Origin: Edaphobacter aggregans
Lineage (GTDB): Bacteria > Acidobacteriota > Terriglobia > Terriglobales > Acidobacteriaceae
Length of the DNA: 32,000 bases
Assembly: GCF_003945235.1 (NCBI RefSeq)
Contig: NZ_RSDW01000001.1
Coordinates: 3,510,001 to 3,542,000, forward strand
Direction of reading: 5' to 3'
Position numbers and translations under genes: made by a program. The notes below the pieces were generated by a model. It saw only the letters and a list, made by a program, of their open reading frames with translations. It was not told the DNA's origin and did no database searches. Numbering within the stretch: position 1 is the stretch's first letter; every line of letters starts with the position of its first letter. Of this stretch, positions 1 through 15,002 are shown one piece after another.

Positions 1-987
1 GGCAAGAATCTTCAGCAGGGTGTTGGCAACAACAATGTGACTGCAATCTTGCCGTCTGGTACAAGCACAACCAATCTAGCGAGTCCAGGCGCTGGAGGGA
101 CGATTCCATTCCCCGATTTCGCGTCGAATGGTAGTTTCCAGGCCACGGTAGGAGCCAGTAATTACAATGGATTGCAGACCAAGCTGGAACAGCAATTTTC
201 GAACGGCTTGAATCTCCTTTTCGCCTACACTTATTCCAAGACGCTCTCGGATGCAGGCGACTTGTTGAATGGTGGTAGCTTGGCTGGGCTCCGCGCGCCT
301 GCTGTACCGGGTCTTGGTCCCTCATTTGATTGGGGGCCAGCCAATTTCGATATCCGTCACGTATTTCACTTGAGTGGCGGGTATGAACTGCCAGTTGGCC
401 GGAATAAGCGCTTCATGGCGAACTCCGGTAGAGCAGCTGACGCTGTACTTGGGGGATGGTCTGTAAACTGGATTTTGGTACTTCAAGGTGGCCAGCCCAT
501 AACCCTCAGTTGCCCGACTTCCACGACAGCGGGAACAAACTGCTACGATGTGAGGGTTGCGGGACAAAGTCAGAAACTTGGGCGGTTCATGAAGAACGGG
601 AAGCCATTTTGGTATGGGAACCCCGCTGCCTTCCAGCAACCCTGTCCGCTGGGGGTCACACCCACCGCAGGCTGCATCCCATACACTGGCAGTGCCGTTC
701 TGGGTTTTCGCCCGGGGACGACCACAGGACCAGGATTTAATCGGTTTGATTTCTCGGCGTTCAAGGCTTTTCGCCTGAGCGATCGGTTCTCCCTGCAGTT
801 CCGGTCCGAGTTCTTCAACATACTCAACCATCCGAATTTCAATGCTCCTAATTTCGGCGGAAACGGTGTCGTCGCAATTAGCAACTCTGGCAACTTCACC
901 AGCGCCAACTTTGGGCAAATTGGATCGACTCGCGATGCTCCCTACGATCCGCGGCAGATTCAATTTGCTTTGAAGCTGCTTTTCTAA
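1..987 (+). CDS. TonB-dependent receptor / outer-membrane beta-barrel protein, C-terminal part (5' end outside window)
   Basis: Frame 1 is open from base 1; the ORF track only starts at an internal Met at 37. The sequence is Gly/Asn/Tyr/Phe-rich with an alternating beta-strand pattern. It ends ...QIQFALKLLF with a terminal Phe, typical of the last strand of TonB-dependent/OMP barrels. A strong terminator follows. Confidence 0.75.
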   Translation, partial: GKNLQQGVGNNNVTAILPSGTSTTNLASPGAGGTIPFPDFASNGSFQATVGASNYNGLQTKLEQQFSNGLNLLFAYTYSKTLSDAGDLLNGGSLAGLRAPAVPGLGPSFDWGPANFDIRHVFHLSGGYELPVGRNKRFMANSGRAADAVLGGWSVNWILVLQGGQPITLSCPTSTTAGTNCYDVRVAGQSQKLGRFMKNGKPFWYGNPAAFQQPCPLGVTPTAGCIPYTGSAVLGFRPGTTTGPGFNRFDFSAFKAFRLSDRFSLQFRSEFFNILNHPNFNAPNFGGNGVVAISNSGNFTSANFGQIGSTRDAPYDPRQIQFALKLLF

Positions 988-1000
988 GCTAAGATAAAAA

Positions 1001-1049
1001 CGCCCCGGAAAGGTACGCCTACTGGGCGCCTTTCCGGGGTTTTTCTTTT
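1001..1049 (+). terminator. Rho-independent terminator
   Basis: Perfect 11-bp stem ccccggaaagg (1003-1013) / cctttccgggg (1029-1039), followed by tttttctttt (1040-1049), 16 nt after the stop at 985-987. Confidence 0.85.
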
Positions 1050-1089
1050 GCGAAGCGCTTTGCTTTCGCGGCGATCATGGAGGTAGACG

Positions 1090-2505
1090 GTGAGCAGGAT
1101 GCCGCGGTTTCGGCTTGGGATTCTTTGCTCTCTTATGGTTTGCGCGACCTTTGCCGCAGCCGATGGCGACCAGAAGCAAAAGCTGGATCGCCAATTTCAG
1201 TCGGCGGTGGCGCAATATGACGCCGGGCGATTCGCAGAAGCAGCAGCCCAACTAGAAGACCTTTTACCTCAGGCACCAAATAACTTTGAGGTCGAAGAAC
1301 TTTTGGGGATGACCTACTCCGCGCTGTCGCAGGATACGAAGGCAATAAAACACCTTGATGCTGCGGTTCGATTGAAGCCGAACTCGGCTGCTGCGAGGAC
1401 CAATCTGGCGGCGAGTCTCTCGCGTTCAGGAAAGGCCGAATTGGCTGGCGAACAGTTCCAAAAGGCGCTCGAATTGGAGCCTAGGGACTATACCGCCAAC
1501 CACAACCTGGGTGAATTTTATATTCAGTCCGGAAAGATCGCGGAAGCGCACCCTTTTCTCGAACGGGCGCAACGAATTAATCCTGCCTCCTACGATAACG
1601 GCTACGATCTGGCGATGGCCGATCTCCTCACTGGACGGCTTGACGAGGCACGGCAACTTGTCCAAAGCATGATCCAAAGCAAGAACACCGCGGAGTTGCA
1701 CAACCTGCTAGCCCAGATTGAAGAGAAAGACGGAAAATTCGTAGCGGCGGCAAATGAGTTCGGGACTGCTGCTCATATGGATCCGAGTGAGGACAATTTG
1801 TTTGATTGGGGGAGCGAACTTCTTATCCACAGGACCTACGAGCCGGCCATAGATGTCTTTCGCCAAGCTACCCGGCTTTATCCGAATTCCCCCAGACTTC
1901 AGATCGGGCTGGGCATGACGCTATACTCGCGAGGTCTTTACGAAGAGGCAGTCAAGTCCCTTCTTGTGGCGGCTGATCTAAATCCTTCCGATGCTCGGTG
2001 CTACCTTTTTCTCTCGAAGGCCTACGATAGCTCTCCAAGCCAAGCGGAAGAGGTAATTCAGAGATTCCAGCGGTATTCGGAGCTTGAGCCCAACAATGCA
2101 CTGGCCCAGTACTATTACGCGATGAGTTTGTGGAAGGGAAAACGGGCTGAGGGCTCAGGCTTGGATCTTCAGGCAGTCGAGTCCTTGCTGAAAAAGTCTA
2201 TATCTCTGAATGAGAAGCTTCCCGAAGCCCATGTGCAATTAGGCAATCTTTATGCCGACCAGCATCAATATGCCAAGTCCATTCCGGAGTATGTGCGTGC
2301 ACTCGAACTGAATCCGAATCTCCCGGACGCCCATTACCGTTTGGGGACGGACTATGTTCACGTCGGACAAAAAGACCGCGCGCAAAACGAGTTCGACGTC
2401 TATCAAAAGCTCCGAGCGCAACATCTGGCCGAAGTCGACAAGGAGAGGATAGAAGTCAGGCAATTCGTGTACTCGGCGAAGGCTGCTCCTTCCACCAAGC
2501 CTTGA
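1090..2505 (+). CDS. Secreted tetratricopeptide (TPR) repeat protein
   Basis: GGAGG (1079-1083) lies 6 nt before GTG 1090. N-terminal signal peptide LGILCSLMVCATFAAADG. Successive 34-aa TPR-like units occur throughout (e.g. ...AIKHLDAAVRLKPNSAAARTNLA..., ...YVRALELNPNLPDAHYRLG...). Confidence 0.85.
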   Translation: MSRMPRFRLGILCSLMVCATFAAADGDQKQKLDRQFQSAVAQYDAGRFAEAAAQLEDLLPQAPNNFEVEELLGMTYSALSQDTKAIKHLDAAVRLKPNSAAARTNLAASLSRSGKAELAGEQFQKALELEPRDYTANHNLGEFYIQSGKIAEAHPFLERAQRINPASYDNGYDLAMADLLTGRLDEARQLVQSMIQSKNTAELHNLLAQIEEKDGKFVAAANEFGTAAHMDPSEDNLFDWGSELLIHRTYEPAIDVFRQATRLYPNSPRLQIGLGMTLYSRGLYEEAVKSLLVAADLNPSDARCYLFLSKAYDSSPSQAEEVIQRFQRYSELEPNNALAQYYYAMSLWKGKRAEGSGLDLQAVESLLKKSISLNEKLPEAHVQLGNLYADQHQYAKSIPEYVRALELNPNLPDAHYRLGTDYVHVGQKDRAQNEFDVYQKLRAQHLAEVDKERIEVRQFVYSAKAAPSTKP

Positions 2506-2603
2506 TTTCTGTGCAGCGACAGCCTCAAGCGTATGCTGGCGGAATAACGAGTGGAAGTTGAATGTCATTGAAACTCGCTCCAACGAATGATAAGGAGATT
2601 TAA

Positions 2604-3800
2604 ATGACGGGCCAATCATCATTCAGCAGAGCACATACAGTTCGTAGGAAGGAAGCGGCAAGCCCTCGCGAACTCGCCCAACGTCTCGGCCATAGCAGGC
2701 GCGATTTTCTGCGCGGTGCGGCAGGGATGGTCCTGGGAACTACACTCATGGGTGTAAGCCCTTTTGTCCGTGGACAAACTGCAAAGAAGCGGAAAGTAAT
2801 CGTCATTACATTTGGCGGAGGCGCCCGCGATCAGGAAACATTTGCACCTGAGGGTCAGGAAAATATCCCGCACCTGCTCCACGAACTTATCCCTCAGTCG
2901 AGTTTTTTTACACAAGTAACGAACCAAGGGATACTGGGCCACTACGTGGCGACTGCCAGTCTGGCGACGGGTGTATACGAAACCCTCAACAACTTTTCTG
3001 CAATCCCTCCGGAACATCCCACTGTCTTCGAGTACTTTCGCAAGGATCTGAGGCGCCCGTCCTCGGACGCGTGGGTGGTTGCGCCCAGCAACGGATTCAA
3101 CCGTATTGGCGAGAGTGAATGTCGCTCTTATGGTCCGGGCCTGGGAGCGAGGGTGGTTTTGCCAAAGCATTTGCTCAGCGCGGCGACATCCGGGACTGCC
3201 GCGGACTACGAACATCTTTTGCGCGATAACTACGAAACGCCGCTCTACACCCCCCCAATTGGGGGCGGGGAATTCGAATTGCAGCAACTGGAGTCAATCC
3301 TGAAGCTTTCGGTCAATGATTTTAGGACGCATGCCCAGACCTTATCGAGCCCGGACGAACTCTCTGTGTATATCGCGAAGCGACTGATGAAGCAGGAATC
3401 TCCCAGCCTTCTTTGGATCACGATGCACGATATCGACATCGCGCACTCCGGGGCCTACTCGCTCTACATTGATGCCATTCAGCGTACGGATCGTCTTTGC
3501 ACGGAGATATGGAAGGCGATTCAGAGCGAGCCGGAATACGCGGGCAACACGACACTTCTAATTCTTCCGGATTTTGGCCGGGATGCCGACGAGGATCCCG
3601 GGGGAAATGGATTTCAGCATCATCGCACGGGTGACGCAGCCTCCCGTACCACCTGGATGATGGCTCTGGGCACAGGTACCCGCCAAGGAGTGGTGTACGA
3701 CCGTCCGTTGCAGTCTATTGACCTTGTACCTAGTCTGGGGGCGATGATGGGATTTTCGCCTACGCTGTCGCAAGGTAAACCGATTCGAGAACTTTTGTAA
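2604..3800 (+). CDS. Tat-signal protein, alkaline-phosphatase-superfamily / DUF1501-like (family call tentative)
   Basis: AAGGAG (2592-2597) lies 6 nt before the ATG. Twin-arginine motif SRRDFLRGAAG is followed by a hydrophobic h-region. VIVITFGGGARDQETF near the N-terminus and LLILPDFGRDADEDPGGNGFQHHRTGD near the C-terminus resemble the metal-site segments of DUF1501/sulfatase-like proteins. This is recognised from memory, not searched. Confidence 0.6.
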   Translation: MTGQSSFSRAHTVRRKEAASPRELAQRLGHSRRDFLRGAAGMVLGTTLMGVSPFVRGQTAKKRKVIVITFGGGARDQETFAPEGQENIPHLLHELIPQSSFFTQVTNQGILGHYVATASLATGVYETLNNFSAIPPEHPTVFEYFRKDLRRPSSDAWVVAPSNGFNRIGESECRSYGPGLGARVVLPKHLLSAATSGTAADYEHLLRDNYETPLYTPPIGGGEFELQQLESILKLSVNDFRTHAQTLSSPDELSVYIAKRLMKQESPSLLWITMHDIDIAHSGAYSLYIDAIQRTDRLCTEIWKAIQSEPEYAGNTTLLILPDFGRDADEDPGGNGFQHHRTGDAASRTTWMMALGTGTRQGVVYDRPLQSIDLVPSLGAMMGFSPTLSQGKPIRELL

Positions 3801-3805
3801 TTTTT

Positions 3806-5014
3806 ATGCTGCCATCCAATCTCCAAGCCGAACAGTTCATCGGGTATCCTCCTGAGGCAAGGAGACTGGCGGTAGCCAACCTGCGAGCGCTGCAACAACT
3901 GCCACTCAGCTTTCTGCCGGGTTTACTGAGAGAACTTATCGATTACGATTTCAAGTTCCCAGTAGAGCGCATTGCAATCGAGAAGGAACTCGCGAACCTC
4001 AGTTCTCTTTCGCAGGCGCAGATTAATCAGTGGTTTCAAGCATTCTCCCAACTATCGCTCTCCTCGAAGTTGGAGCACCTCGACTGGGTCAATCATCCTG
4101 CCCGGTTTCTCGAACAGGAATCGGCACACCTATGGACCACGCATCAACTGGATGCATTTCGAAAGGCAGCGACGGATTACGGCGACCGACTGCGATCGGT
4201 GGTGTCCGTTGAGCCTATTCCCGTACCCAGGCTTGGAATTGCAGTAATCGGACAGGGCGTCGCGTCGTACGATGGATCTCTATTTCGCAACCTGCGCAAG
4301 CAGGGTACTTATTTTGGACGAGTCAAGCCCGAGAACGGACTTGAGCATCTGCTGACGGCGGTCGCTGTTCGGGCGAAAGCATATCCCGTTCCTTATGGCC
4401 ATTGGTACGTTGATGGAGGGCAAGCGGCCGATCATAGCCCGCTAATGACGTGCGTGCAGTACCAGGCGCTTGAACCCGTGCGCGTTGCCCTGCTCAAGTA
4501 CATGCAGAAAGAAATTGAGCAACCCGGTATGGGGCCGGAGGAACTACGCACAAACCTGGCACGACTGTTGCCCTCCGATCTTGGGATGGATAAAGCGGGA
4601 GACGCGGTGCTGGACCGCTTTCAGGTCAAACTGCTCACAGAAGGCTCCGGCACACAGATATTCAGCACCACCTTTGCACAGTGGACAGCACGCGAGGCCC
4701 TACGACGTGCTCAACCGCTCACCCTGTTGGTACGTTTCGCACCGCGACAACGGCAACGACCAATGAATGAGTTGCTTTCCGGCAGCCATGGCAATCCTGA
4801 ACTCGATCTCATAGGCTCCCTCATCGATGCAGACATGGGCACTTACTATCATTGGATAAACCAGCAGCGGCTATCGGGATCAGAGCACTCTTCGTTCCTT
4901 GTGTGGTTTGAAGGCCACAGTCAAGCTCTCGTGATTGCCCCGTCTCTTCCGCGAGGTGCGGAGTCAAATTCGGCCATTGATCTCAGAGAGCTAATTTCAC
5001 TCACTACCGGTTAA
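3806..5014 (+). CDS. Hypothetical protein, 402 aa, no signal peptide, no family recognised
   Basis: Long ORF starting 5 nt after the stop of the Tat-signal gene, in the same orientation. Ordinary amino-acid composition without low complexity. No competing ORF of comparable length. Confidence 0.7.
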   Translation: MLPSNLQAEQFIGYPPEARRLAVANLRALQQLPLSFLPGLLRELIDYDFKFPVERIAIEKELANLSSLSQAQINQWFQAFSQLSLSSKLEHLDWVNHPARFLEQESAHLWTTHQLDAFRKAATDYGDRLRSVVSVEPIPVPRLGIAVIGQGVASYDGSLFRNLRKQGTYFGRVKPENGLEHLLTAVAVRAKAYPVPYGHWYVDGGQAADHSPLMTCVQYQALEPVRVALLKYMQKEIEQPGMGPEELRTNLARLLPSDLGMDKAGDAVLDRFQVKLLTEGSGTQIFSTTFAQWTAREALRRAQPLTLLVRFAPRQRQRPMNELLSGSHGNPELDLIGSLIDADMGTYYHWINQQRLSGSEHSSFLVWFEGHSQALVIAPSLPRGAESNSAIDLRELISLTTG

Positions 5015-5405
5015 ATTTTCCGTCAGCGGGATCTGCAAAAAATGGGTGTTGAACGTTGTGTATTTTGTGGTCAGTTTGTGGTGTCACGAGTGGATAACGT
5101 GGACATTGGATTACCCGGCACGAGTGTGTTCAGGCGTACTTGTCGGAGAAGGCAGCGGAAACACAATCAAAGCCCTGGAAAGGGTTTAGTCATCCGCTCA
5201 AAGATTCGGTTTGAACCGATGAGTTCCAGCAGCCCCATACGTTCGAGGATGACAGCACAGTAGGGGAACGTTAGTAAGTCGCTGGCTTCTGGGCTGTGGG
5301 AGAGTAGTCTGCAATACGGACATTTCGGGGTTACTTCCGGATTGCCGGTTATTACTCGGTACAGAGTTCGCGATTTCTCGTGGCAATTTTGACAAGCTCT
5401 CTGGG

Positions 5406-5864
5406 TCAGTAGACGCGTCTTCCGGTGATGGTGTACTTCGCGTCAGGAGGATTCTCTGGGGCAATCACCTTCTCCTCCGCAGGTTTCTTCTCCTCTGCAG
5501 GCTTGATCGCCTCTGCAGGCTTGATCGCCTCTGCAGGCTTGATCGCCTCTGCAGGCTTGATCGCCTCTGCAGGCTTGATCGCCTCTGCAGGCTTGATCGC
5601 CTCTACAGGCTTGATCGCCTCTGCAGGTTTCTTCGCCACTATAGGCTCCTCTGGGATCATCGCCCACGCGAAGCCGTGCGCCAGCCATAAAAAGAAGGTG
5701 GCGAAGAGGCACACCGCAACAAGGCCAGCGATAAAGAATACTACCTGGCGTTCATTGTTGGCGGCAGCAAACAACCCGATTAAGAAGAAGGCGAAGGTTG
5801 CGATTGAGAAGCCGACCGCGAAGCGCTCAAGTCGACGCGATAAAACACGCATGCGATTACTCAT
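5406..5864 (-). CDS. Two-TM membrane protein with C-terminal (P-A-E-A-I-K)n hexapeptide repeat region
   Basis: GGAGG (reverse complement of 5871-5875) lies 6 nt before ATG 5864. Arg-rich N-terminus, two hydrophobic helices (FAVGFSIATFAFFLIGLFAAA; VVFFIAGLVAVCLFATFFLWLA), then KKPAEAIKPVEAIK(PAEAIK)x6 PAEEKKPAEEK. Confidence 0.8.
   Translation of the reverse strand: MSNRMRVLSRRLERFAVGFSIATFAFFLIGLFAAANNERQVVFFIAGLVAVCLFATFFLWLAHGFAWAMIPEEPIVAKKPAEAIKPVEAIKPAEAIKPAEAIKPAEAIKPAEAIKPAEAIKPAEEKKPAEEKVIAPENPPDAKYTITGRRVY
5497..5622 (-). repeat. 18-bp tandem repeat (gcaggcttgatcgcctct): six perfect units plus one with a single mismatch; degenerate units at 5479-5496 and 5623-5640
   Basis: Counted directly: units start at 5497, 5515, 5533, 5551, 5569, 5587 and 5605 (the last has a for g at 5605). 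The array is in frame with the minus-strand CDS and encodes PAEAIK. Confidence 0.95.
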
Positions 5865-5902
5865 TTAGGTCCTCCGTCGCTTAGCGAAATAGGCCTCGGG
5901 GG

Positions 5903-5931
5903 CTTATAGAAAAGAGCCGCTTACCTGCCCA
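5903..5931 (-). promoter_or_regulatory. Possible sigma70-type promoter for the repeat-protein gene
   Basis: On the minus strand: TGGGCA (5931-5926), 17-nt spacer, TATAAG (5908-5903), about 40 nt upstream of ATG 5864. Pattern match only. Confidence 0.3.
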
Positions 5932-6220
5932 GATAGGTTGCACCCTCCGTCTAGGGCTTGCAAGCCTTATCCCGACTCCTTGAGGAAGGAAACTCTGTTA
6001 ATTACCAACTCGCGGACTTGTGAAGAGGAAGAGGTTCGGGAGGTCGCGGCAGTAGCCATCGATTTGGAAGGTGAGGCTTCGAACCAGCGATTACCCGCCG
6101 GCGAATCGACCCCGATGAATCTCCGCAAAGACATGGGGCACGAGAGCTTCACCGATGAAGCGCGACCAATACACGACCGTGGCATTAAACAGCCAAGTTG
6201 CTGAAAAATAAAAATAATTA

Positions 6221-6248
6221 CCAAAAAATAAGGACCTCCGTGCGGAGG
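6221..6248 (-). terminator. Terminator-like hairpin plus T-run downstream of the distal tRNA-Phe fragment
   Basis: The minus strand reads CCTCCGCACGGAGG (6248-6235), then TCCTTATTTTTTGG and more T-rich sequence. The stem is short (5-6 bp, GC-rich). No equivalent structure follows the intact tRNA at 13065. Confidence 0.4.
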
Positions 6249-6272
6249 AGGCTTCTGTTGAAGATCTCTTAG

Positions 6273-6339
6273 TAAGTTACTGATTCTAAGTGGTGGCCAG
6301 AGACGGGATCGAACCGCCGACGCCGGCCTTTTCAGGGCC
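6273..6339 (-). repeat. Direct repeat, distal copy (att-like): tRNA-Phe 3' 49 nt plus 18 bp of 3' flank
   Basis: 65/67 identical to 13047-13113. The only mismatches are 6280 c/t and 6290 g/a, both in the flank. Positions 6291-6339 are identical to 13065-13113. Confidence 0.9.
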
Positions 6340-6363
6340 CCCTACCAATGGACCTAAGTGGCT
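6291..6363 (-). pseudogene. tRNA-Phe-derived pseudo-tRNA (perfect 3' half, diverged non-pairing 5' half)
   Basis: The reverse complement reads AGCCACTTAGGTCCATTGGTAGGGGGCCCTGAAAAGGCCGGCGTCGGCGGTTCGATCCCGTCTCTGGCCACCA. From the anticodon stem to CCA it is identical to the real gene. The 5' part matches about 16/21 with indels, and the acceptor and D stems cannot pair. Confidence 0.75.
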
Positions 6364-6452
6364 TAGAATCAGCGGACGCGATTGATACGAAAGAGGTTAG
6401 AGCAGTGCGGATTAGGATAGGCTGGGATCATTTGGGATGGTTTCCTCCCTAG

Positions 6453-6472
6453 GTTGTTCCCGTATTGTTCCC
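6453..6472. repeat. Inverted repeat, left copy (gttgttcccgtattgttccc)
   Basis: Perfect reverse complement of 12952-12971. It lies 113 bp inside the distal direct repeat. Internally it contains GGGAACAA twice with an 11-bp period. Confidence 0.85.
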
Positions 6473-6920
6473 GCCTACCAAGTCGACCGATTTCATCCGC
6501 GTATGCAAAGCTGTCCTGCAACCGCTTGCTAATGGTTGTGTAAAGCGGTGCAGGCACCGGTAGGACTGCTCTAAATTTTGCCGATTCCAAGAGGACGGCT
6601 TCAATGCAGGCATAGCTTGTTCTCAATACTTATGGAGAGTTGACGCTCGCGGGCATTCCGCCAGGGCAGACATAGGCGGTAAAGCAGTCTTTCGAGGAGG
6701 CGTAAGGTGTGGGAACGGCGGCAGACCGGCTACGGCGAGTAGAAGCTTGTTCGCAGCATTGAAGAGGATTCAAGTGAATGTCGACATAACCGTTGGTGGC
6801 GGCCAGAATAGTGGTCGTAATTGGCTGTTTTGTGTGGCCGACCCCAACTCTTCATCTCGCACTCTTGATGAGGGGTCACTTCTTTTATGTAGGGCCGCGA
6901 GAGATTTTTCAAGCAGGCTC

Positions 6921-8732
6921 TCAGAACCTCCAATAGAGAGGCGCGATGAATACTGCGACCACGAGCGACCACAACAGGACCATCATTCCAAGCTTCCAGT
7001 AGTCCCCAAACTCGTAGGCACCCGGCCCATACGTCACCAGGTTCACTGGTGTGCTCATAGGTGTAAGGTGAGCAGCACCGGACCCCATTGCCACGGCAAT
7101 CAGCAAAGGCAGTGGCGAAACGGAAAGTTCACCAGCCGTGGCGACTGCGATTGGGATCATTACCAGCGCTGCGGAAGTGTTGGAAATAACCTGTGTGAGC
7201 GCTGTGCTCACGACGAACAGTCCGGCCAACACGGCTCGCGGACCGCCGGCGCCAACCAGTTGGATGACATGGTCTCCGATCAATCCCGCCAAGCCTGTGT
7301 TGGTCATGGCAGTAGCCATCGGAATCAAACCTCCGATGAGGATGCAGGTGTTCCAGTCAACGCCACGGTATAGTTGCGGCAGCGTGATAACCCGCATCAC
7401 AACCATGGCGCCTGCACAGAGTACTGCCGCGATCGCTGGCGGTACCGCGTTGGTCGTGAGCAGGACGACCAGTAAGATCAAGATACCGATGGCTTCATAG
7501 GCGCCACGGCTCAGGGCGACTGCCTGGCGCCGAACCACTTCCGGAGAGTCGACCACCAGCACCTGCGGATCGGAAAGGTGCTTATCCAGTGCCTCCCACG
7601 TTCCCTGCAACAAAAGGTGGTCACCAATGCGCAGTTGTGTGATATTCGACTCCACGTCATAGCCGCCGCGCTGAATACCGAGAATGATTAGGTCCCCGTT
7701 GTGTGTGGCCATACCCGGGAATACTGTCTGGCCTATCAGAGCCGAGCGAGGCGGGACCACGATTTCGGCTAGACCGGATGAACGATTGAAAAGCGTATCT
7801 GCGATGTTATCGTCCTCTGCATTCGATTTGCGGATGGCAAGATGCATGTCACGCGCCAGCTTTCCCACCGTCTGTGCATCACCGCGCACCAACAGAAGAT
7901 CTCCTTCGGCCACTGGCTTCTGCGTGGGCTCCCCTCCTTCTGCATCCACTAGACTGACAATGCTTACGCCAGGGTAGGATGTCAGATCGATATCAGTTCT
8001 AGACATTCCGACATAAGGTGAACTGGCACGTACCCGCAGATGATGCATGTCGTCTTTGATTCGGTATTGTTCGACCAGCGTATGCGCATGACCGCTGAGG
8101 TCAACTGGGAGAGATCCACTCCGACGCTTCGGCAGCAGGTGAGGCCCGAAAATCAGAATGATGACCATCGCGCCAGCGAATAGGGGAACGCCCACGATAG
8201 CCCACTCGAAGAACCGGATAGGCCCCGCGCCAGCCAATTCGCCAGCATTTGACGCGATGACATTTACGGGGCTGCCCAGCAACGTGAGTTTAGCGCCGGT
8301 GAGGCACGCTATCGACACCGGCATCATTATCTGAGATGGCGCAATATCCGTACGTGCTGCGATGACGACCGCGATCGGGACCATCGTTACAACTGCACCA
8401 TTCATGCCAATCAGTGCGGTGAACAAAGCGGATAAGAGCAATAGTGATACGAGCAACAGCGTTTTATTTGTGCCTGCATAACGAATGAGGAGTTGACCGG
8501 CCCAAGTCCCTACGCCTGTCGCCTCCAGACCAGTGCCAATGACCAGAAGTGCAGCGATGAACACAACCAATGAGTCACCGAATCCCGCCAAAGTGTCGTG
8601 CGCGTTCAGGACGCCGGTGAAATACAGGACAAGCGACGAGAACACCGCTACGATTGCCGCTGGCAATTTATTCCAGATGAACAAGACCATCATCGTGACA
8701 ACAACCAGCGATGTGATCATAAGTTGACTCAT
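6921..8732 (-). CDS. SLC13/DASS-family anion permease with two central TrkA-C (RCK_C) domains
   Basis: GGGAG lies 8 nt before ATG 8732; the ORF-track start at 8756 has no RBS. Polytopic hydrophobic N- and C-terminal halves flank two soluble segments of TrkA-C type (...LRVRASSPYVGMSRTDIDL...GDLLLVRGD... and ...EIVVPPRSALIGQTV...GDHLLLQGT...). Confidence 0.8.
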   Translation of the reverse strand: MSQLMITSLVVVTMMVLFIWNKLPAAIVAVFSSLVLYFTGVLNAHDTLAGFGDSLVVFIAALLVIGTGLEATGVGTWAGQLLIRYAGTNKTLLLVSLLLLSALFTALIGMNGAVVTMVPIAVVIAARTDIAPSQIMMPVSIACLTGAKLTLLGSPVNVIASNAGELAGAGPIRFFEWAIVGVPLFAGAMVIILIFGPHLLPKRRSGSLPVDLSGHAHTLVEQYRIKDDMHHLRVRASSPYVGMSRTDIDLTSYPGVSIVSLVDAEGGEPTQKPVAEGDLLLVRGDAQTVGKLARDMHLAIRKSNAEDDNIADTLFNRSSGLAEIVVPPRSALIGQTVFPGMATHNGDLIILGIQRGGYDVESNITQLRIGDHLLLQGTWEALDKHLSDPQVLVVDSPEVVRRQAVALSRGAYEAIGILILLVVLLTTNAVPPAIAAVLCAGAMVVMRVITLPQLYRGVDWNTCILIGGLIPMATAMTNTGLAGLIGDHVIQLVGAGGPRAVLAGLFVVSTALTQVISNTSAALVMIPIAVATAGELSVSPLPLLIAVAMGSGAAHLTPMSTPVNLVTYGPGAYEFGDYWKLGMMVLLWSLVVAVFIAPLYWRF

Positions 8733-8799
8733 CTTTATATCTCCCGGGCAAAACACCGATCCTGGATTTGCTTCACAACACCGCCGTCAAGACGGCAGA

Positions 8800-10461
8800 T
8801 CAGTAACCCAGGGCGGCGCCGTCGCCCCGCGGATCGGCCCCTCCTTCGTAGAAACCCTGTTCGTGATCGACGCGGATGGCATGCGCATGCCCCATGTTGT
8901 CATTCCAGTCGGTAACCATTTGCACGGGCTGTCCGCGCCGTTTCAGTTCGCGCACCACCTCATCAGGGATGCGCCCTTCGAGTGACATATTCCGCGATTT
9001 CGTTCCCCAGGTCCGCCCCATCAGCCAACGAGGCGCTTCGATCGCCTGTTGAATGTCATAGCCGAAATCGATGATCCGGGTCGCGAGTGCCGCTTGCGAT
9101 TGCGGTTGTCCTTCGCCGCCCATCGAACCGAAAGCAAGATAGGGTTTTCCGTTGCGTGTCATCATGCCAGGGATCAACGTGTGAAACGTGCGCTTTCCGG
9201 GACGCAGATGGTTTGGATGATGCTCATCCAGTGAAAAGAATCCGCCCCGATTTTGCATGATGATACCTGTATTGCCGCCGATAACAGCGCTTCCGAAGTC
9301 GTGAAAAATCGATTGAATCAACGACACGACCATCCCATTCCTGTCCGCAGCGCAGAAATAGCAGGTATCTCCTTCAGGGACGCGACGTTCATGTGGATGT
9401 GCATAGGCAATACCGGCAGGTACCTGGCTAATGTCCAGCGCCCGTTCTGAGTCGATCAGCTTGCGGCGTTCATTGCAGTACTCCTTCGAGATCAACCGCT
9501 GCACCGGAATCTCCACGAAACGTGGATCTGTCAGCCATTCTTCGCGATCGGCGAAAGCGATCTTCACTGCCTCCGCCATATGGTGGTAGTAGTTTGCGGT
9601 GCCGTCGCCCCAGGCAACCACATCATAGCCTTCAATAAGATTCAGAATCTGGAGCGGAGTGAACCCCTGGGTGTTTGGCGGCAACTCATGCACATCGTAG
9701 CCTCGATACGTTGTGGTGATTGGGTCAACCCACTCTGCGTGGAAGTCGGCAAAATCGCTCGCCCGCAGCGGCGACCCTAACGATTGAACGCCTTCCGAAA
9801 TTTGCTTAGCGATTTGGCCCTCGTAAAATCCTCCGCGTGCGCCTTTATCGGCAATATGTTGCAATGACTGCGCAAGGTTTGTTTGGACGAGCCGTGCTCC
9901 TTCGCTCGGGACTTGACCACCAGGCAGGAAAACTGCGGCCGTCGCCGGGTACTGCGTCAGAATCGGCACATCCTGCACGATCCAATCAAGCAGGGACCGG
10001 CTAACCGGTACACCGTCGCGGGCATAGGTAATCGCCGCTTCAAATAATTCACTCCAGGGCAGGCCTCCAAAGCGCTCGTGTGCCGCACGCCACCCGTCGA
10101 CAGCGCCCGGCACGGTCAGAATGGCCAGCGGCCCACGCGATGGAATCTCATTGTTTTTGCCTTTGGAACGATAGAAATCCAACGTTGCAAGCTGCGCCGC
10201 ATGACCACTGGCGTTCAGCCCATGTACGCGATTGGTCTTTTCATCAGCGATCAACCAGAAGCCGTCGCCGCCCAATCCGGCCATGTGTGGATACGCCACA
10301 CATAACACCGCATTTGCGGCAATGGCCGCATCCACTGCGGTGCCGCCGCGCTGGAGTATATTCAATCCCGCCTGACTGGCGAGGTAGTGAGGTGTCGATA
10401 CCACACCGCGCGGTGCACGAGTAGACGGGCGACCGGTGCGAGGGCCATTCGGATGACTCAT
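8800..10461 (-). CDS. ggt: Gamma-glutamyltransferase family protein (no signal peptide, probably cytoplasmic Ntn amidohydrolase)
   Basis: AAGGAG lies 8 nt before ATG 10461. The N-terminus runs straight into the conserved core (GVVSTPHYLASQAGLNILQRGGTAVDAAIAANAVL). Autoprocessing/nucleophile region ...EGDTCYFCAADRNGMVVSLIQS. C-terminal ...GGADPRGDGAALGY is typical of the family. Confidence 0.85.
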   Translation of the reverse strand: MSHPNGPRTGRPSTRAPRGVVSTPHYLASQAGLNILQRGGTAVDAAIAANAVLCVAYPHMAGLGGDGFWLIADEKTNRVHGLNASGHAAQLATLDFYRSKGKNNEIPSRGPLAILTVPGAVDGWRAAHERFGGLPWSELFEAAITYARDGVPVSRSLLDWIVQDVPILTQYPATAAVFLPGGQVPSEGARLVQTNLAQSLQHIADKGARGGFYEGQIAKQISEGVQSLGSPLRASDFADFHAEWVDPITTTYRGYDVHELPPNTQGFTPLQILNLIEGYDVVAWGDGTANYYHHMAEAVKIAFADREEWLTDPRFVEIPVQRLISKEYCNERRKLIDSERALDISQVPAGIAYAHPHERRVPEGDTCYFCAADRNGMVVSLIQSIFHDFGSAVIGGNTGIIMQNRGGFFSLDEHHPNHLRPGKRTFHTLIPGMMTRNGKPYLAFGSMGGEGQPQSQAALATRIIDFGYDIQQAIEAPRWLMGRTWGTKSRNMSLEGRIPDEVVRELKRRGQPVQMVTDWNDNMGHAHAIRVDHEQGFYEGGADPRGDGAALGY

Positions 10462-10555
10462 GACGGAATCTCCTTACGTGCCTTCTGTATTAACAAGCCT
10501 GAGGTACTTCCCATGGCTTGCCGAATCCTACGGATATGGGCGCGACATCGGTGGA

Positions 10556-10774
10556 TCAAGACGCCCGGTCGTCAAACTCGATTCCGGTATCTCTAATCTT
10601 GTCCTTGGAGTGATCCATAAAACGTGTCACGATGGGCAATGCTCCCCCCAAGACAACACACAAAAGTCCCAGCCATAACGTGACCGTATGGCCTCCCGTT
10701 GCGCCAAAGCTGGTTAGCGGAAAGGCAACGAATAGTAATATCAGCGCGATTGTCTCAGCGGTTAGCTTGTCCAT
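10556..10774 (-). CDS. Small (72 aa) two-TM membrane protein
   Basis: GAGG lies 7 nt before ATG 10774 and overlaps the stop of the upstream permease gene. Two hydrophobic helices. Located between two operon genes on the same strand. Confidence 0.55.
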   Translation of the reverse strand: MDKLTAETIALILLFVAFPLTSFGATGGHTVTLWLGLLCVVLGGALPIVTRFMDHSKDKIRDTGIEFDDRAS

Positions 10775-10783
10775 TGAACTACC

Positions 10784-12409
10784 TCAATGCAGAAGAACGA
10801 GTGCAACGGTTGCCAATCCAGTCAGCACTGCAACAAGGATGGTCCAGGGCAACGCCTGTCGCAGTACTGCTCCTTCTTGACCCTTGATGCCAGTGATGCT
10901 CGTGCCTAGCACGACATTGGCGGGACCAATGGCATTCCCGTATGCACTACCCGCGGCCTGCGCAGCAATAATGGTTTCCACGGGTAAAGCGTGCAGATGT
11001 GCCACGTCGCTTTGCAATCCACCGAAAAGCACGTTGGATGCCGTGCTGCTCGACGTCATGAATGCGCCAAGCGCACCAATAACGCTGGCAATGCTGGCAT
11101 AGACTAATGGTGGAGACACCGCAGCGATGCCGTCGGCAAGAACTAATGTTTGGCCACTGTGGTCAAGTATTCGGCTCAATACCAGAAAGGCAATGACCGG
11201 CACGGAGGCTGGTACGCCATCAGCAATTAGACTTCGCGCAAGATTTTCAGTGCCGTGACGCGCTCCCCAGGCTCTGTAATAACCCTTCGCATTAAACACA
11301 ATCCAAACGACGATGGCCGTGATCAACAACATTGTTCCAGGGTGTGTTAATGGAGCGAACGGTGCGTAACGCTCGACTGCAGCATTGTGCACACCGAATC
11401 CGGTTTCCACTTCAGGAAAAGGTAAACCGACTCGGAACTGCCGCAACGCCGCGTTGAGTGACGGAATGAGCAGAATTCCAAGGGTCACAATCGGCAGCAC
11501 GATGTAGGGCAGAAACGACATCGACAGGCTCATGACGGGCTGTTCTTCGTGCTGCGTCTCAGTACGTTTTTCCTGCATCGCAGGTCTGTCGGGGATACCT
11601 TCTATCGGTTCACCATATCGGCGCCAACGTGATAAAGGATAAAGAGCGATCATTGCGACGGCGGCAGCCAAGAACGTTGAAAGTTCAGGACTAAAAAACG
11701 CAAATAGCAGTTGTCCAAAACCCAGGATCGTACCCAGAATGAGGACCAGCGGCCAGGCATGCCTTATGGCCGCCCAACGTCCATAGAGCCACACAATAAA
11801 GAGGCCGCCTAAATATGTCGAGATCAGTAGCAAAAGCGACGCTTCATAGGCAGTCCTTGTAACATCGTGCACGTCGGCAACCTGCAGTGTTGCCAGCCAA
11901 CCGACGCCGAGCGTGCCGAAGAACCTCGCCCACGCATGTGCAATGATCGACATCGACGCGGCATAGACCGGTCTTACGCCCATAGCGAGAAGAAGTGGAG
12001 CGACCACAACGATAGGTGCGCCAAAACCTGCTATGCCCTGGAGAAACGACGAAAATACCCAGGCGAGCGCTAAGATGATAAACAATTCATTGCGGCTAAA
12101 GCGCGCAATGCCTTGTCGGAGGGCGTCGTATCCACCCGCCTGTTTGGTTAGCTGATATAGCAACAGCGAGGGCCACATTACATAGAGAATAAAGATGGCG
12201 TCCCACACGCCTTTCGCACTTGCGACTGCCAGCGTGGCCAGAGGAGTTCGAAAGGCGAGGAAAGCGATGATACCGCCGGTGAACATCGCCACTGGTCCCG
12301 CTTCAGGCGCCCGCCAGCGCAGTGGCACAAGGAAAATGAGTAGCGCAAGAATGGAAAGCGTTGCTAACGTCCAATGGAGAAAATCAACCGGAACATGTGC
12401 CTCAGTCAT
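10784..12409 (-). CDS. L-lactate permease (LctP) family transporter
   Basis: GGAGA lies 6 nt before ATG 12409; the ORF-track start at 12541 adds 44 non-hydrophobic residues with no RBS. Family motifs: FLQGIAGFGAPIVVVAPLLLAMGVRPVYAA (compare E. coli LldP [30 protein letters not shown]) and C-terminal TSSSTASNVLFGGLQ. Confidence 0.85.
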   Translation of the reverse strand: MTEAHVPVDFLHWTLATLSILALLIFLVPLRWRAPEAGPVAMFTGGIIAFLAFRTPLATLAVASAKGVWDAIFILYVMWPSLLLYQLTKQAGGYDALRQGIARFSRNELFIILALAWVFSSFLQGIAGFGAPIVVVAPLLLAMGVRPVYAASMSIIAHAWARFFGTLGVGWLATLQVADVHDVTRTAYEASLLLLISTYLGGLFIVWLYGRWAAIRHAWPLVLILGTILGFGQLLFAFFSPELSTFLAAAVAMIALYPLSRWRRYGEPIEGIPDRPAMQEKRTETQHEEQPVMSLSMSFLPYIVLPIVTLGILLIPSLNAALRQFRVGLPFPEVETGFGVHNAAVERYAPFAPLTHPGTMLLITAIVVWIVFNAKGYYRAWGARHGTENLARSLIADGVPASVPVIAFLVLSRILDHSGQTLVLADGIAAVSPPLVYASIASVIGALGAFMTSSSTASNVLFGGLQSDVAHLHALPVETIIAAQAAGSAYGNAIGPANVVLGTSITGIKGQEGAVLRQALPWTILVAVLTGLATVALVLLH

Positions 12410-12951
12410 TTTAATTCTCCGCGCATCGCGAAAAAGATCATTAGCAAACGTAATTTGGTTTTGGTAATTGCAGCGCCCAAGTAGCGCATTGAGCAACACT
12501 CTTATAGGAAAGGCCCATGTACTTCTCTGATGCAGAGTCAAAGCTCTGAATTATGAGTTCCTGATTTGAGTGGAATCCTGGGACTAAAGAGCGGAGAGAA
12601 AATGGTGAGACTACTGCTCCGTTGGATGTCAGCTAAAAAGAGACGCTCTGTAGCGAACGAATGTTCTCATAGCTATCCCAGAGTGTCAAACAGTTTCGGT
12701 TGTTGTGGGATCTGTTTCCAATGCGCCTTATTTTATTGGCACCGATTTCCAGATGTAGTGGTCGTGAGAACTCTCCACAGGCAGTTTCCTCACGAGACCG
12801 CAACCTGTAAATGAATATCTCATTATTCAAAGATTTCGTGGAAGGCATCAAGCGATCGCGACCTTGACACATCATGGCTTGCGGCGGCATGACAGACTGC
12901 TCGACGGGCCATCACGAGAAACTCAGCTGAAAGCGGGTTTTATGATTGACG

Positions 12952-12971
12952 GGGAACAATACGGGAACAAC
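12952..12971. repeat. Inverted repeat, right copy (gggaacaatacgggaacaac)
   Basis: Perfect reverse complement of 6453-6472. It lies 75 bp inside the proximal direct repeat. Confidence 0.85.
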
Positions 12972-13046
12972 GTTGATTCAGTCTCTTCAACCACTTACGA
13001 AGCGAGACTAGAAATGGGCTCGGAGAATTACTGCGCTGCTCCCTGC

Positions 13047-13113
13047 TAAGTTATTGATTCTAAATGGTGGCCAGAGACGGGATCGAACCGCCGACGCCGG
13101 CCTTTTCAGGGCC
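13047..13113 (-). repeat. Direct repeat, proximal copy (att-like), overlapping the 3' half of the functional tRNA-Phe
   Basis: See 6273-6339; 65/67 identity. Confidence 0.9.
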
Positions 13114-13139
13114 GCGCTCTACCACTGAGCTATCTGGCC
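13065..13139 (-). tRNA. tRNA-Phe (anticodon GAA), CCA encoded
   Basis: The reverse complement is GGCCAGA TA GCTC AGTGGTA GAGC G CGGCC CTGAAAA GGCCG GCGTC GGCGG TTCGATC CCGTC TCTGGCC A CCA. The full cloverleaf has 7/4/5/5-bp stems, a canonical T-loop, and GAA in the anticodon loop. Confidence 0.95.
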
Positions 13140-13346
13140 TTGGCATGGTGCAACGCTTCTATTCGGGGATCGCCAAGGATGCCCGGAGCGTACGTCTGTC
13201 GCATCGGCCTTTTCAGGGGGAGCTTGCTACCGGTGGGGAACCAGCAACTCAAACGCAATTCAAGTATAGCAATCTCTGGCCATTCTCTCCAACTCGCCGC
13301 CCCTTCACGCTATTCTTGCTCATATCACTCACGATAAGGACGCCTC

Positions 13347-15002
13347 ATGCTACGTCCCACCCAGAGCCTTTTGGCCACTCTCCTTCTCTGCTTCACCGCT
13401 GCTGCTATTGCACAGACTCCAGCCAAGCCCAAAACGGCAGCCCCACGCGTATCGCGTGCTACACCTCAGGAGCAACGCGCCTCCCGCGCATTCGACGCCG
13501 CTAAACAGAGCAGCCCTCTCCAGCTCACTGCCTTCCTCGTCAACATGCCCAAGGGCGGCGATCTTCATATGCATCTCTCCGGGGCCGTCTACGCCGAGAC
13601 CTTCATCAGGAACGGCGCTGCCGACTTGCTCTGCGTCAATCCTGGGACTCACAGCTTCGTGAAGCCTGGTGGCACTACGCGTAGTATTCCGCCTCAGCCA
13701 GTTTGCGGCGAAGGTAATGTCCGTGCGTCGGACGCTTTCAAGGACCAGCGCCTCTATGATGACCTCGTCAACTCGTTCTCCATGCGCAGCTTCGTTCCCA
13801 GCGCCGGCGTCAGCGGTCACGATCAGTTCTTCGCTACCTTCGGTCGCTTCAGTGGCATCGACAAATCCCATACCGGCGAGTGGCTCGACGAAGTGGCATC
13901 TCGCGCTGCTGCGCAGAACGAACAGTACCTTGAGGTCATGGAGACGCCGATCTTCTCTGATGTCGCTAAACTTGGCTACTCCATTCCATGGCCAAGCACT
14001 CCTGCTGACCCTGTGCTGAATCGCACTGGTGACGCTACCGGAACCACGCGCGAGGATCTCAGCAAGCTCCGTGACGCGCTTCTGGCTGGAGGTTTGCGCG
14101 ATGAGGTCGCCGTCGATCGCAAGGAGCTCGACGATGCTCTGAACTCGCGCAACCAGATTGAGCACTGTGGTGAGCCAAGTGCTACCCGCGCCTGCTCCGT
14201 CAAAATCCGCTTCTTATACCAGGTCCTGCGAGCATTTCCGCCACAACAGGTCTTCGCACAGACTTTGCTGGGCTTCGAGGTCGCATCGCAGGACCCGCGC
14301 GTCGTCGGCATTAACTTTGTTCAGCCCGAAGACTCTTACATGTCGATGTCGGAGTACCACCGCCAGATGTTGATGCTCGACTACCTGCACGGCGTTTACC
14401 CCAAGGTGCACATCTCGCTTCATGCTGGGGAGCTAGCTCCCGGTCTCGTCCCGCCCGACGGTCTCCGCTTCCATGTCCGCGAGGCGATTGACCTTGGTCA
14501 CGCGGAGCGCATCGGCCATGGCGTCTCCGTCATGTACGAGAACGAGCCTCAATCGTTGCTCAAAGAGATGGCCTCGCGGCACATCATGACGGAGATCAAC
14601 CTCACCTCGAACGACGTCATCCTTGGCGTCACCGGGGCGTGGCATCCGCTGCCTGCTTATCGTGCCGCGGGAGTTCCGGTGGCGCTCTCGACTGATGACG
14701 AGGGCGTCTCTCGCATCAACATCACGCACGAATACGCCCGGGCTGCACTCGACTTCAACCTTTCTTACCTCGACCTGAAGAAGATGGCCCGCACCTCGAT
14801 CGAGCACAGTTTTCTTCCGGGGGCCAGCCTATGGGCACAGCCTGACGTATTTACTACGATCAACTCTGCCTGTGCTGCCCAACCGCTTGGCGGAGCCAAC
14901 CCGACGCCCAAGTGCCTGGCTTTTTTGCAGTCCAGTGAGAAGGCTGCCGAGCAGTGGCAGCTCGAACACCGTTACCTGCTCTTCGAGGGTAGCCTTCCAT
15001 AA
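13347..15002 (+). CDS. Secreted adenosine deaminase family protein (ADGF/ADA2-like, long form)
   Basis: AAGGA lies 6 nt before the ATG. Signal peptide LLATLLLCFTAAAIAQTPA. Metal-site motifs MPKGGDLHMHLSG, SLHAGE, ERIGHG and ALSTDDEGV occur in the expected order for adenosine/AMP deaminase-fold amidohydrolases. Confidence 0.8.
   Translation: MLRPTQSLLATLLLCFTAAAIAQTPAKPKTAAPRVSRATPQEQRASRAFDAAKQSSPLQLTAFLVNMPKGGDLHMHLSGAVYAETFIRNGAADLLCVNPGTHSFVKPGGTTRSIPPQPVCGEGNVRASDAFKDQRLYDDLVNSFSMRSFVPSAGVSGHDQFFATFGRFSGIDKSHTGEWLDEVASRAAAQNEQYLEVMETPIFSDVAKLGYSIPWPSTPADPVLNRTGDATGTTREDLSKLRDALLAGGLRDEVAVDRKELDDALNSRNQIEHCGEPSATRACSVKIRFLYQVLRAFPPQQVFAQTLLGFEVASQDPRVVGINFVQPEDSYMSMSEYHRQMLMLDYLHGVYPKVHISLHAGELAPGLVPPDGLRFHVREAIDLGHAERIGHGVSVMYENEPQSLLKEMASRHIMTEINLTSNDVILGVTGAWHPLPAYRAAGVPVALSTDDEGVSRINITHEYARAALDFNLSYLDLKKMARTSIEHSFLPGASLWAQPDVFTTINSACAAQPLGGANPTPKCLAFLQSSEKAAEQWQLEHRYLLFEGSLP

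Follow-up and report, generated by a model that had tools for sequence, protein, structure and literature searches.

A probable CIME-type islet without an integrase in a tandem array at the tRNA-Phe gene of Edaphobacter aggregans

How does a genome come to carry the 3' half of its tRNA-Phe gene twice, 6.8 kb apart and in the same orientation, with no integrase gene between the two copies? The question is raised by a 32-kb stretch of Edaphobacter aggregans DNA (contig NZ_RSDW01000001.1, positions 3,510,001 to 3,542,000; hereafter “the window”, numbered from its first letter), and it concerns the segment 6340–13046, referred to below as the islet. A first-pass annotation had read the borders of this segment as attachment (att) products of a tyrosine recombinase acting on the 3' half of tRNA-Phe. 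The repeats, the arms that adjoin them and the behaviour of the same site in related species all support that idea. We conclude that the islet is probably an integrase-less integrative islet of the cis-mobilizable element (CIME) type, and that it belongs to a tandem accretion array at tRNA-Phe, a hypervariable hotspot of the Acidobacteriaceae.

A displaced tRNA-Phe half and a missing recombinase

The annotated repeat was recovered by a repeat search: 6273–6339 and 13047–13113 are identical at 65 of 67 positions, and the two mismatches (6280/13054 and 6290/13064) both fall inside the 18-nt trailer. The tRNA part (6291–6339 and 13065–13113) is perfect, 49/49 as had been claimed, and extends from the CCA end across the anticodon loop into the 5' arm of the anticodon stem, of which it takes in four bases. 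By our own estimate an exact 49-nt repeat is expected about 1e-21 times by chance in 32 kb. ARAGORN finds a single tRNA in the window, tRNA-Phe(GAA) at 13065–13139 on the minus strand (Rfam 67.6 bits), while for the distal copy at 6273–6339 it reports no tRNA and Rfam gives no match even at E ≤ 1, so that the complete and the incomplete copy had been told apart correctly. The abrupt end of identity described at 6339/13113 holds for the perfect match only. Past it the sequence still resembles the 5' part of the tRNA for about 26 nt, in decayed form (6340–6365; 17/23 matches, with a 3-nt gap), at a score reached by one of 2000 shuffles.

For comparison, relatives were retrieved by the adenosine-deaminase-like (Ada-like) gene at 13347–15002. 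This gave 80 Acidobacteriaceae loci from Edaphobacter, Tunturiibacter, Granulicella and metagenome-assembled genomes, the best Ada-like match having 88% protein identity. A tRNA-Phe match lies beside the Ada-like gene in at least 76 of the 80, usually 75/75 identical; L052, L058, L069 and L079 gave none. The trailer found at 13047–13064 also follows tRNA-Phe in L005, L008, L009, L011, L016, L024, L028, L035, L039, L040, L053 and L070 (66–67/67). As to the hairpin beyond the distal fragment, which had been taken for the only terminator-like one, the region holds 10 such sites where 7.6 are expected; the others are weak, and that at 6221–6252 alone is placed as a tRNA terminator. A homologous hairpin stands directly 3' of tRNA-Phe in L002, L003, L005, L015, L021 and L042 (alignment A1), which supports the proposal that the trailer and terminator once next to the tRNA now lie at the far end.

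Pfam searches of all large open reading frames (ORFs) in the 32 kb identified neither an integrase nor an excisionase, nor a recombinase of any other kind. When seven integrases taken from relatives were used as tblastn queries, every match had E > 0.07 and none fell in the arms; six-frame Pfam searches of both arms at E ≤ 1 revealed no recombinase or Xis remnant, and a recombinase profile search had no match in the window. The interior consists of four genes only, among which Pfam and NCBIfam identify no conjugation or mobilisation gene. The reported lack of an integrase and an excisionase between the repeats therefore stands.

The two flanks of about 0.6 kb, gene-less in the first description, are, in turn, not featureless, since 6340–6517 and about 12885–13046 are att arms shared with other loci (Table 1). 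The arm on the tRNA side aligns with L008, L014, L016, L039, L040 and L082 and is 96% identical to L085. The far arm together with the core repeat is 86% identical to L014 over 239 nt (6273–6510) and 87% identical to L085 (6273–6517); the P-arm alignment, A3, also takes in L053. Small ORFs in the arms are conserved no better than the DNA itself, and Rfam at E ≤ 1 found the tRNA alone on both arms. Between the tRNA-side arm and the operon lies a spacer (12442–12884) that has no Pfam or Rfam match; L085 and, up to 12568, L086 have it too, and the homology of the other operon copies stops at 12441. A promoter-like site in it (12851–12822, minus strand) is a consensus match only, and the spacer probably holds the operon promoter.

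Table 1. Coordinates of the islet, its att-like borders and adjoining features in the window.
Feature	Position	Strand	Basis and remarks
Intact tRNA-Phe(GAA)	13065–13139	-	ARAGORN; Rfam 67.6 bits; 75/75 identical to the tRNA-Phe of most of the 80 related loci
att core copy, tRNA side (attL)	13065–13113	-	3' 49 nt of the intact tRNA-Phe
18-nt tRNA trailer, element-side version	13047–13064	-	Repeat search; TTTAGAATCAATAACTTA on the tRNA strand; part of the 67-nt repeat
tRNA-side arm of the islet (P' arm, type b)	12885–13046	-	GTTGTTCCCGTATTGTTCCC at 12952–12971, forward on the tRNA strand, ~94 nt past the tRNA 3' end
Islet-specific non-coding spacer upstream of the cargo operon	12442–12884	-	Shared with L085 at 96%; with L086 up to 12568
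Cargo operon, four genes	6903–12441	-	Pfam; NCBIfam
LctP-family permease	10784–12409	-	Pfam; NCBIfam
72-aa membrane protein	10556–10774	-	Pfam; NCBIfam
Gamma-glutamyltransferase (GGT)-family amidohydrolase	8800–10461	-	Pfam; NCBIfam
CitMHS/DASS anion transporter with TrkA_C domain	6921–8756	-	Pfam; NCBIfam
Islet-specific non-coding spacer between far arm and operon end	6518–6902		No homolog in any locus compared; no Pfam match in six frames; no Rfam match
Far arm of the islet (P arm, type c)	6340–6517	-	Motif at 6453–6472, 113 nt from the core and in reverse orientation on the tRNA strand
Displaced original tRNA-Phe 3' half (att core, attR, 6291–6339) and original trailer (6273–6290)	6273–6339	-	Repeat search
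Intrinsic-terminator-like hairpin and T-run, displaced tRNA terminator	6221–6252	-	Stem 6234–6252, T-run down to ~6221; homologous hairpin in relatives
Second motif, other variant (GGTCG)	6162–6178	-	GGTCGTGTATTGGTCGC, immediately beyond the islet, in forward orientation on the tRNA strand; invariant in six A1 relatives, at the same position after the tRNA

Two further repeats were seen near these borders. An 11-nt inverted repeat, CTGATTCTAAG / CTTAGAATCAG, at 6280–6290 (trailer) and 6362–6372 (P arm) brackets the displaced tRNA fragment, and CCGCTGATTC is kept in the P arms of L014, L053 and L085. On the other side, the stretch that separates the 5' end of tRNA-Phe from the Ada-like gene has a conserved element some 60 nt long (13190–13250, no Rfam match), which includes a 14-nt exact copy (13205–13218) of the anticodon stem-loop region 13098–13111. 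At least 10 of 65 relatives have its core, GCCTTTTCAGGG, at a distance of 65–70 nt upstream of the tRNA. This element may act as a promoter or leader; alternatively, it may be what is left of an old att site.

Arm motif geometry and the integrase Int-A

The two arms carry a common 17-nt motif, GTTCCCGTATTGTTCCC, which forms a perfect inverted pair on the inner side of the repeats (6453–6472 and 12952–12971; GTTGTTCCCGTATTGTTCCC in its 20-nt form). The motif is made of two half-sites 11 bp apart, and occurs as the variants GTTCCCG, GTTCGCG, GTTCGGA and GGTCGYG, each followed by TATTG and the half-site repeat. Elsewhere the arm alignments are 60–80% identical; the GGTCG variant is nevertheless invariant in 7/7 sequences of A1 and the GTTCCC variant intact in 7/9 of A2. 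In the P arm, just outside the motif, the box T[AG]GGAT recurs three times in phase, at 6413, 6423 and 6433 (window 6413–6438, 10-nt spacing), and an accessory protein, for example an excisionase, may bind there. These boxes are kept in many metagenome P arms as well (TAGGAT..TGGGAT..TGGGAT).

Throughout 1.37 Mb of related loci every occurrence of the motif is beside tRNA-Phe or a fragment of it, save the one in L040 (at 873), where no tRNA-Phe sequence was detected nearby. A viral contig collection gave one match to the motif (L081), with no tRNA nearby. Metagenomes were searched for exact copies of the window's motif variant alone, which returned at least 120 loci on mostly short contigs. 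Among the matches listed, to which the counts in this paragraph refer, at least 79 instances lie near tRNA-Phe-like sequence and fall into three fixed geometries. In geometry (a), with 18 instances, the motif is 47–48 nt past the tRNA 3' end, reverse on the tRNA strand and directly after the stop codon of an integrase gene; 16 of the 18 loci have an integrase match, 14 of them to the family called Int-A here. Geometry (b) comprises 19 instances, mostly 96–97 nt past the 3' end, forward, after the trailer TTTAGAATCAATAACTTA, and an integrase was found in none of the 19 loci. The 42 instances of geometry (c) are mostly 115–118 nt before a core, reverse, always beside a tRNA fragment and never beside a whole tRNA. 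The window combines geometry (b), at 12952–12971, with geometry (c), at 6453–6472.

Int-A is a tyrosine integrase of 371 aa. It abuts tRNA-Phe in seven species (L006, L022, L029, L030, L033, L034 and L037), ending about 70 nt from the tRNA 3' end, and in the relatives as a group it is borne by conjugative and by small replicative integrative elements at this gene. The elements in L006 and L037 are conjugative, since Int-A is accompanied there by TrbI, VirB9 and VirB4 homologues. Decayed Int-A fragments lie beside tRNA-Phe in five more species (L018, L032, L046, L073 and L080), with an L001-type trailer as well, and a second integrase family occupies the site in L027 and L065. The viral contig collection yielded no Int-A relatives, so that Int-A elements are not recognisable prophages in it.

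Several observations tie the motif to Int-A. In L030 and, among the matches listed, in 14 metagenome loci, the stop codon of Int-A is immediately followed by the identical 17-nt motif. The metagenome loci L162 and L189 contain elements of about 10 kb that begin or end with Int-A, and 9–10 kb from it there is a tRNA fragment with a type (c) arm (L162 also has a rolling-circle Rep-like gene); the far arm of the window is thus the kind of P arm that closes Int-A elements. Moreover, the Int-A residue before [VI]RWRE is K in 9/9 proteins associated with the GTTCCCG type and E in 6/6 proteins associated with other variants. The Int-A proteins of L030 and L034 are 89% identical outside the N-terminus, yet their motifs and their N-terminal segments differ. 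The 17-nt motif is most likely an arm-type binding site of the N-terminal domain of Int-A, to judge from this co-variation and from its placement. A broader correspondence, between overall Int-A identity and motif variant, was considered and rejected: the L030 integrase is less similar to the metagenome proteins of the GTTCCCG type than to integrases that go with other motifs, and only the N-terminal residues co-vary.

Other integrases were met in the same setting. In L104 (11649–12578) and L151 (4490–6006) a type (c) P arm with GTTCCCG and a core are followed by tyrosine integrases of other families, 30–37% identical to the L027 type, so that several integrase families use this tRNA-Phe core in arrays.

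Hotspot, tandem units and cargo

The islet genes and the genes of the window's left flank were found within 10 kb after tRNA-Phe in none of the 80 related species. When ORFs of at least 200 aa from these 10 kb were compared all against all, almost nothing was common to different species except Int-A and one conjugative element; tRNA-Phe is therefore a hypervariable hotspot. A second partial copy of tRNA-Phe is present in six of the 80.

The first-pass annotation had proposed to look for an empty site. The islet is indeed absent from 80/80 related species, and the nearest approach to an empty site is provided by L002, L003, L005, L015, L021 and L042, where the trailer, terminator and GGTCG-type motif directly follow the intact tRNA-Phe (A1). 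Only the first 110–130 nt of the window's post-islet flank are found in that position, however, and only in these six relatives. Further left, window 1–5023 is a conserved core block (an outer-membrane protein, a TPR protein and two hypothetical proteins), through whose 402-aa protein the left-flank search was made. The block is present at 82–83% DNA identity in L210–L212, with homology stopping just after the 402-aa gene, and no tRNA-Phe core or motif was found in these three loci; it is thus not near tRNA-Phe there. The stretch 5024–6161, between the core block and the att array, is lineage-specific. It includes an ORF on the minus strand (5406–5864) for a 152-aa putative membrane protein, in which about eight tandem 18-nt units (5500–5643) encode (PAEAIK)n. 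A strain contig 99% identical over the left flank (P0121, JGI 3300050821) stops at about window 6220, beside the distal repeat, the kind of place where assemblies break (repeats, polymorphic junctions).

Several related loci have comparable units, and no recombinase was found in L014, L053, L016 or L061. L014 has both window-type arms, 7.4 kb apart, around a cargo of LysR, SDR, two hydrolases and a nitronate monooxygenase. The islet of L053 is 9.3 kb long and lies between tRNA-Phe and a 48-nt fragment; it includes a complete Wadjet system (JetABCD) with a DUF1016 protein (950–8425) and shares with the window the far arm only, of the window's P-arm type with the GTTCGCG variant. L016 and L061 have tRNA-Phe fragments at their flanks and glycosidase-like and ABC genes, without recognisable arms.

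Such units are joined to one another. Junctions of P arm, core and type (b) arm occur in L085, L135, L137 and L140, and with mixed motif variants in L082, L141, L149 and L207, which points to tandem arrays of independent units. In the two complete units, those of the window and of L014, the motif variants match at the two ends, and it is across junctions that they mix. The far junction of the window is built likewise: the displaced fragment, trailer and terminator are followed by the GGTCG-variant motif at 6162–6178, which is either the arm of a next array unit or resident flank. The order of P arm, fragment, terminator and GGTCG motif recurs in the metagenome loci L141 and L149. A search of the rest of the window gave neither a third tRNA fragment nor another arm at which a second unit, on the left, could end.

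L085, a metagenome contig of 6012 nt, is 96% identical to window 8287–13113, i.e. to cargo, the whole tRNA-side arm and the core; its core is joined to a P arm (87% identical to 6273–6517) instead of the tRNA 5' half, after which comes unrelated DNA with a DUF2950 gene. L085 thus has the same islet in a different genome, where it is second in an array because another unit has inserted between it and the tRNA. As a separate observation, tRNA-Phe cores in opposite orientations lie within a few hundred bases of each other in L137 (89–136 and 576–623) and L124 (2013–2045 and 2503–2535), an arrangement that a simple direct array does not predict.

The cargo has a history of its own. As a block the operon is 88–92% identical at the DNA level in L082, L083, L086 and L087, with other flanks, and homology to these copies stops at 6903/6904 and 12441 (12568 in L086). 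In L083 the operon, 90% identical, lies near tRNA-Phe and an Ada-like gene, inverted and behind an MGMT-like gene, although the Ada gene is only about 70% identical in DNA; in L084 it lies among insertion sequences. Relatives of the GGT-family protein reach 92–95% identity in metagenomes and about 80% in Bradyrhizobium, Paraburkholderia and Xanthobacteraceae, and in Bradyrhizobium japonicum (L208, 4031–9616) the four operon genes stand in identical order, with a GGT-family protein about 80% identical. From these copies, with their other flanks and surroundings, we conclude that the cargo has moved between lineages. The operon is a compact module common to different phyla, and comparison of its copies indicates that it was acquired horizontally. 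Some homologues of the GGT-family protein are named oxamate amidohydrolase in the Joint Genome Institute (JGI) annotation.

Mechanism, alternatives and known systems

The repeats, the displaced terminator, the arms and the hotspot together argue for insertion by a tyrosine recombinase into tRNA-Phe. From the anatomy of the locus, a circular DNA whose attP had the 49-nt tRNA-Phe 3' half between a P arm and a P' arm would have recombined with the chromosomal tRNA-Phe. The crossover would have taken place in or beside the anticodon loop, so that the 3' half and trailer borne by the element now complete the tRNA and the original 3' half, trailer and terminator would have been displaced by 6.8 kb. 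The acting enzyme was probably a tyrosine integrase of the Int-A family. The islet being a four-gene operon only, any further excision or transfer would have to rely on the integrase of a co-resident element, acting in trans or, once such an element has inserted alongside, in cis.

A number of points weigh against this interpretation. The arm on the tRNA side is unlike the arm adjacent to Int-A: its motif has the opposite orientation, lies about 94–97 nt from the tRNA instead of 47 and follows another trailer. The islet is thus not a simple deletion derivative of the Int-A elements seen, and binding of Int-A to this arm is putative. There is no integrase in the 32-kb window to act as a donor in trans, no excised circle or restored attB of the islet was seen, and the relatives provided no strict empty site, in which the whole left flank would come after tRNA-Phe. 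L085 can also be explained by a later insertion beside a static islet. Finally, 43 of the 120 metagenome motif loci, among the matches listed, have no BLAST match to tRNA-Phe within 400 nt. On inspection about nine of these 43 seem unrelated; most of them have a diverged tRNA-Phe core, a truncated arm or a contig end.

Could the islet then be an inert remnant, left when an integrase-bearing island lost its integrase and other genes by deletion, with the arms as relics and nothing mobile any more? Decay is the published origin of CIMEs (PMC5704250), the window has no integrase, and decayed Int-A remnants do lie beside tRNA-Phe in L018, L032, L046, L073 and L080, again with the L001-type trailer. 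But the tRNA-side arm is not of the Int-A-proximal type, neither arm contains a remnant, and the two motif copies are still a perfect 20-nt pair. The type (b) arm, moreover, recurs in nine genome loci and, among the matches listed, 19 metagenome loci, never with a recombinase, and the element inserted beside the islet in L085 implies that the system was active after the islet had arrived. We therefore regard an inert remnant as unlikely. About equally improbable, in our judgement, is a gene capture in which the tRNA-side arm (trailer, 75 nt and forward motif) is resident DNA, and chromosomal DNA of a donor was trapped between two att cores and moved as a composite. Type (b) arms follow an intact tRNA-Phe in 15 related species, in none of them with an integrase; their terminator-bearing variant resembles a native tRNA 3' region, and capture by accretion is documented for ICESt3 (Bellanger 2011, as cited in PMC5704250). 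However, the DNA beyond type (b) arms differs in every species, the forward motif shows the sequence variants of the integrase-linked motif and a fixed spacing, the motif types match at both ends of the window islet and of L014, and lambda-type attB sites have, by textbook account, no arm sites.

Two other explanations dispense with site-specific insertion into tRNA-Phe, and both are very improbable. An ancient tandem duplication of tRNA-Phe, with decay of one copy and no mobile DNA, would account for the faint likeness to the tRNA 5' part past the 49-nt block in the far copy. This likeness is nevertheless common to the whole arm family, and the fragment adjoins a conserved arm found at the ends of integrase-bearing elements. 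The arrangement is also absent in 74 of the 80 related species, which excludes the duplication shared by all relatives that had been named at the outset as the competing scenario, and where a second fragment is present the interior differs. The perfect 20-nt inverted pair, 6.5 kb apart, might instead be transposon ends or invertase sites, the tRNA repeat being incidental, and the operon is indeed oppositely oriented relative to tRNA-Phe in L083 and L082. Yet the window holds no transposase or invertase gene, the motif keeps fixed distances from tRNA-Phe cores and directly follows integrase stop codons, and homology of the inverted copies ends at the operon ends (6903, 12441) and not at the repeats. 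For the same reason inversion of the cargo through the motif pair was rejected for L082 and L083.

We return to the preferred reading, a CIME-type islet in an accretion array. The annotation had allowed for something not yet described, but elements that keep attL and attR and lack integration and transfer genes are CIMEs by published definition; they are known from tandem accretion arrays, and in the accretion model arrays grow as new elements insert beside such units (PMC5704250, PMC6323972). The islet is bounded by attL and attR, has no integrase or excisionase and no conjugation or mobilisation genes, and its att sites are related to those of the cognate Int-A elements. As for descent from an integrative and conjugative or integrative and mobilizable element, it retains no module remnants, and its tRNA-side arm differs from the Int-A arm in motif orientation, spacing and trailer; the one hint that it may be mobile is that L085 has it in another array context.

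The CIMEs closest to it belong to the ICESt1/ICESt3 family of Streptococcus thermophilus, a family that targets the 3' end of the protein-coding gene fda and not a tRNA gene. As these CIMEs are summarised in PMC5704250 and PMC6323972 (citing Pavlovic 2004 and Bellanger 2011), they resemble the islet in their attL/attR flanks and their lack of integration and transfer genes. They also share with it a location at the site of related integrase-bearing conjugative elements, tandem arrays with att-core junctions and adaptive cargo. The islet differs in its host phylum, Acidobacteriota, in its tRNA-Phe target and in that its excision and cis-mobilisation are putative. Its tRNA-side arm is, further, not the one found beside the cognate integrase, and this arm does not support an origin by simple deletion.

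Cassettes of integrons are likewise recombinase-less cargo units that each have a recombination site, are stacked and depend on an integrase encoded elsewhere. The likeness is limited to that one respect: the islet has neither attC hairpins nor IntI, its sites are of the lambda type with a tRNA core and long arms, and the units comprise several genes with their own non-coding spacers. The pheV and pheU islands of Escherichia coli are large enterobacterial islands with their own integrases. They too show this tRNA isoacceptor, tRNA-Phe, as a site of repeated integration with highly variable content (PMC11537424).

The anatomy is also that of the tRNA islands collected by Islander (PMC4383910; Williams 2002 as cited there), with a tRNA regenerated by element DNA, a displaced 3' fragment in direct orientation and a block of identity from the anticodon stem to the 3' end. 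The length of this block places the islet in the anticodon-centred attP class of PMC4383910. An intact tRNA gene and a displaced direct fragment are both present, but Islander accepts an island, or a member of a tandem array, only if an integrase gene lies within it (PMC4383910), and the islet, having none, would be filtered out. A transposase or invertase gene, and ends at the inverted repeats, as expected of a transposon or an invertible segment, are both lacking.

The element type is thus already known. As far as the literature was searched, CIME-type islets were not found described for Acidobacteriota, and the gain is one of scope and detail, not of principle. Acidobacteriaceae abound in soil, and little of their mobile DNA has been charted. 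Their tRNA-Phe gene emerges as a busy hotspot at which conjugative elements, small replicative elements and recombinase-less islets accumulate, the last bringing ready-made operons, here one about 80% identical in protein to a Bradyrhizobium operon, elsewhere Wadjet. The motif, its three geometries and the co-varying integrase residue offer a testable model of arm-site recognition. The motif is also a simple sequence tag for islets that finders requiring an integrase miss by design.

A further proposal, which we put forward tentatively and hold to be possible although rather doubtful, is that islets with the forward-motif arm are not decay products. They would form a dedicated class of recombinase-less cassettes, each with its own complete attP, in which the P arm and the tRNA-Phe core go with a P' arm constructed unlike that of the integrase-bearing elements. 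Stacked at tRNA-Phe, they would exploit the Int-A of resident conjugative elements. If so, the Acidobacteriaceae would possess a tRNA-anchored gene-capture array, integron-like but with lambda-type att sites, with cargo ranging from metabolism to Wadjet.

Elsewhere in the window, and unrelated to the islet, the minus strand has a tandem pair of adjacent AcrB/RND transporter genes at 24679–31181, both full-length and coding for 1110 and 1056 aa.

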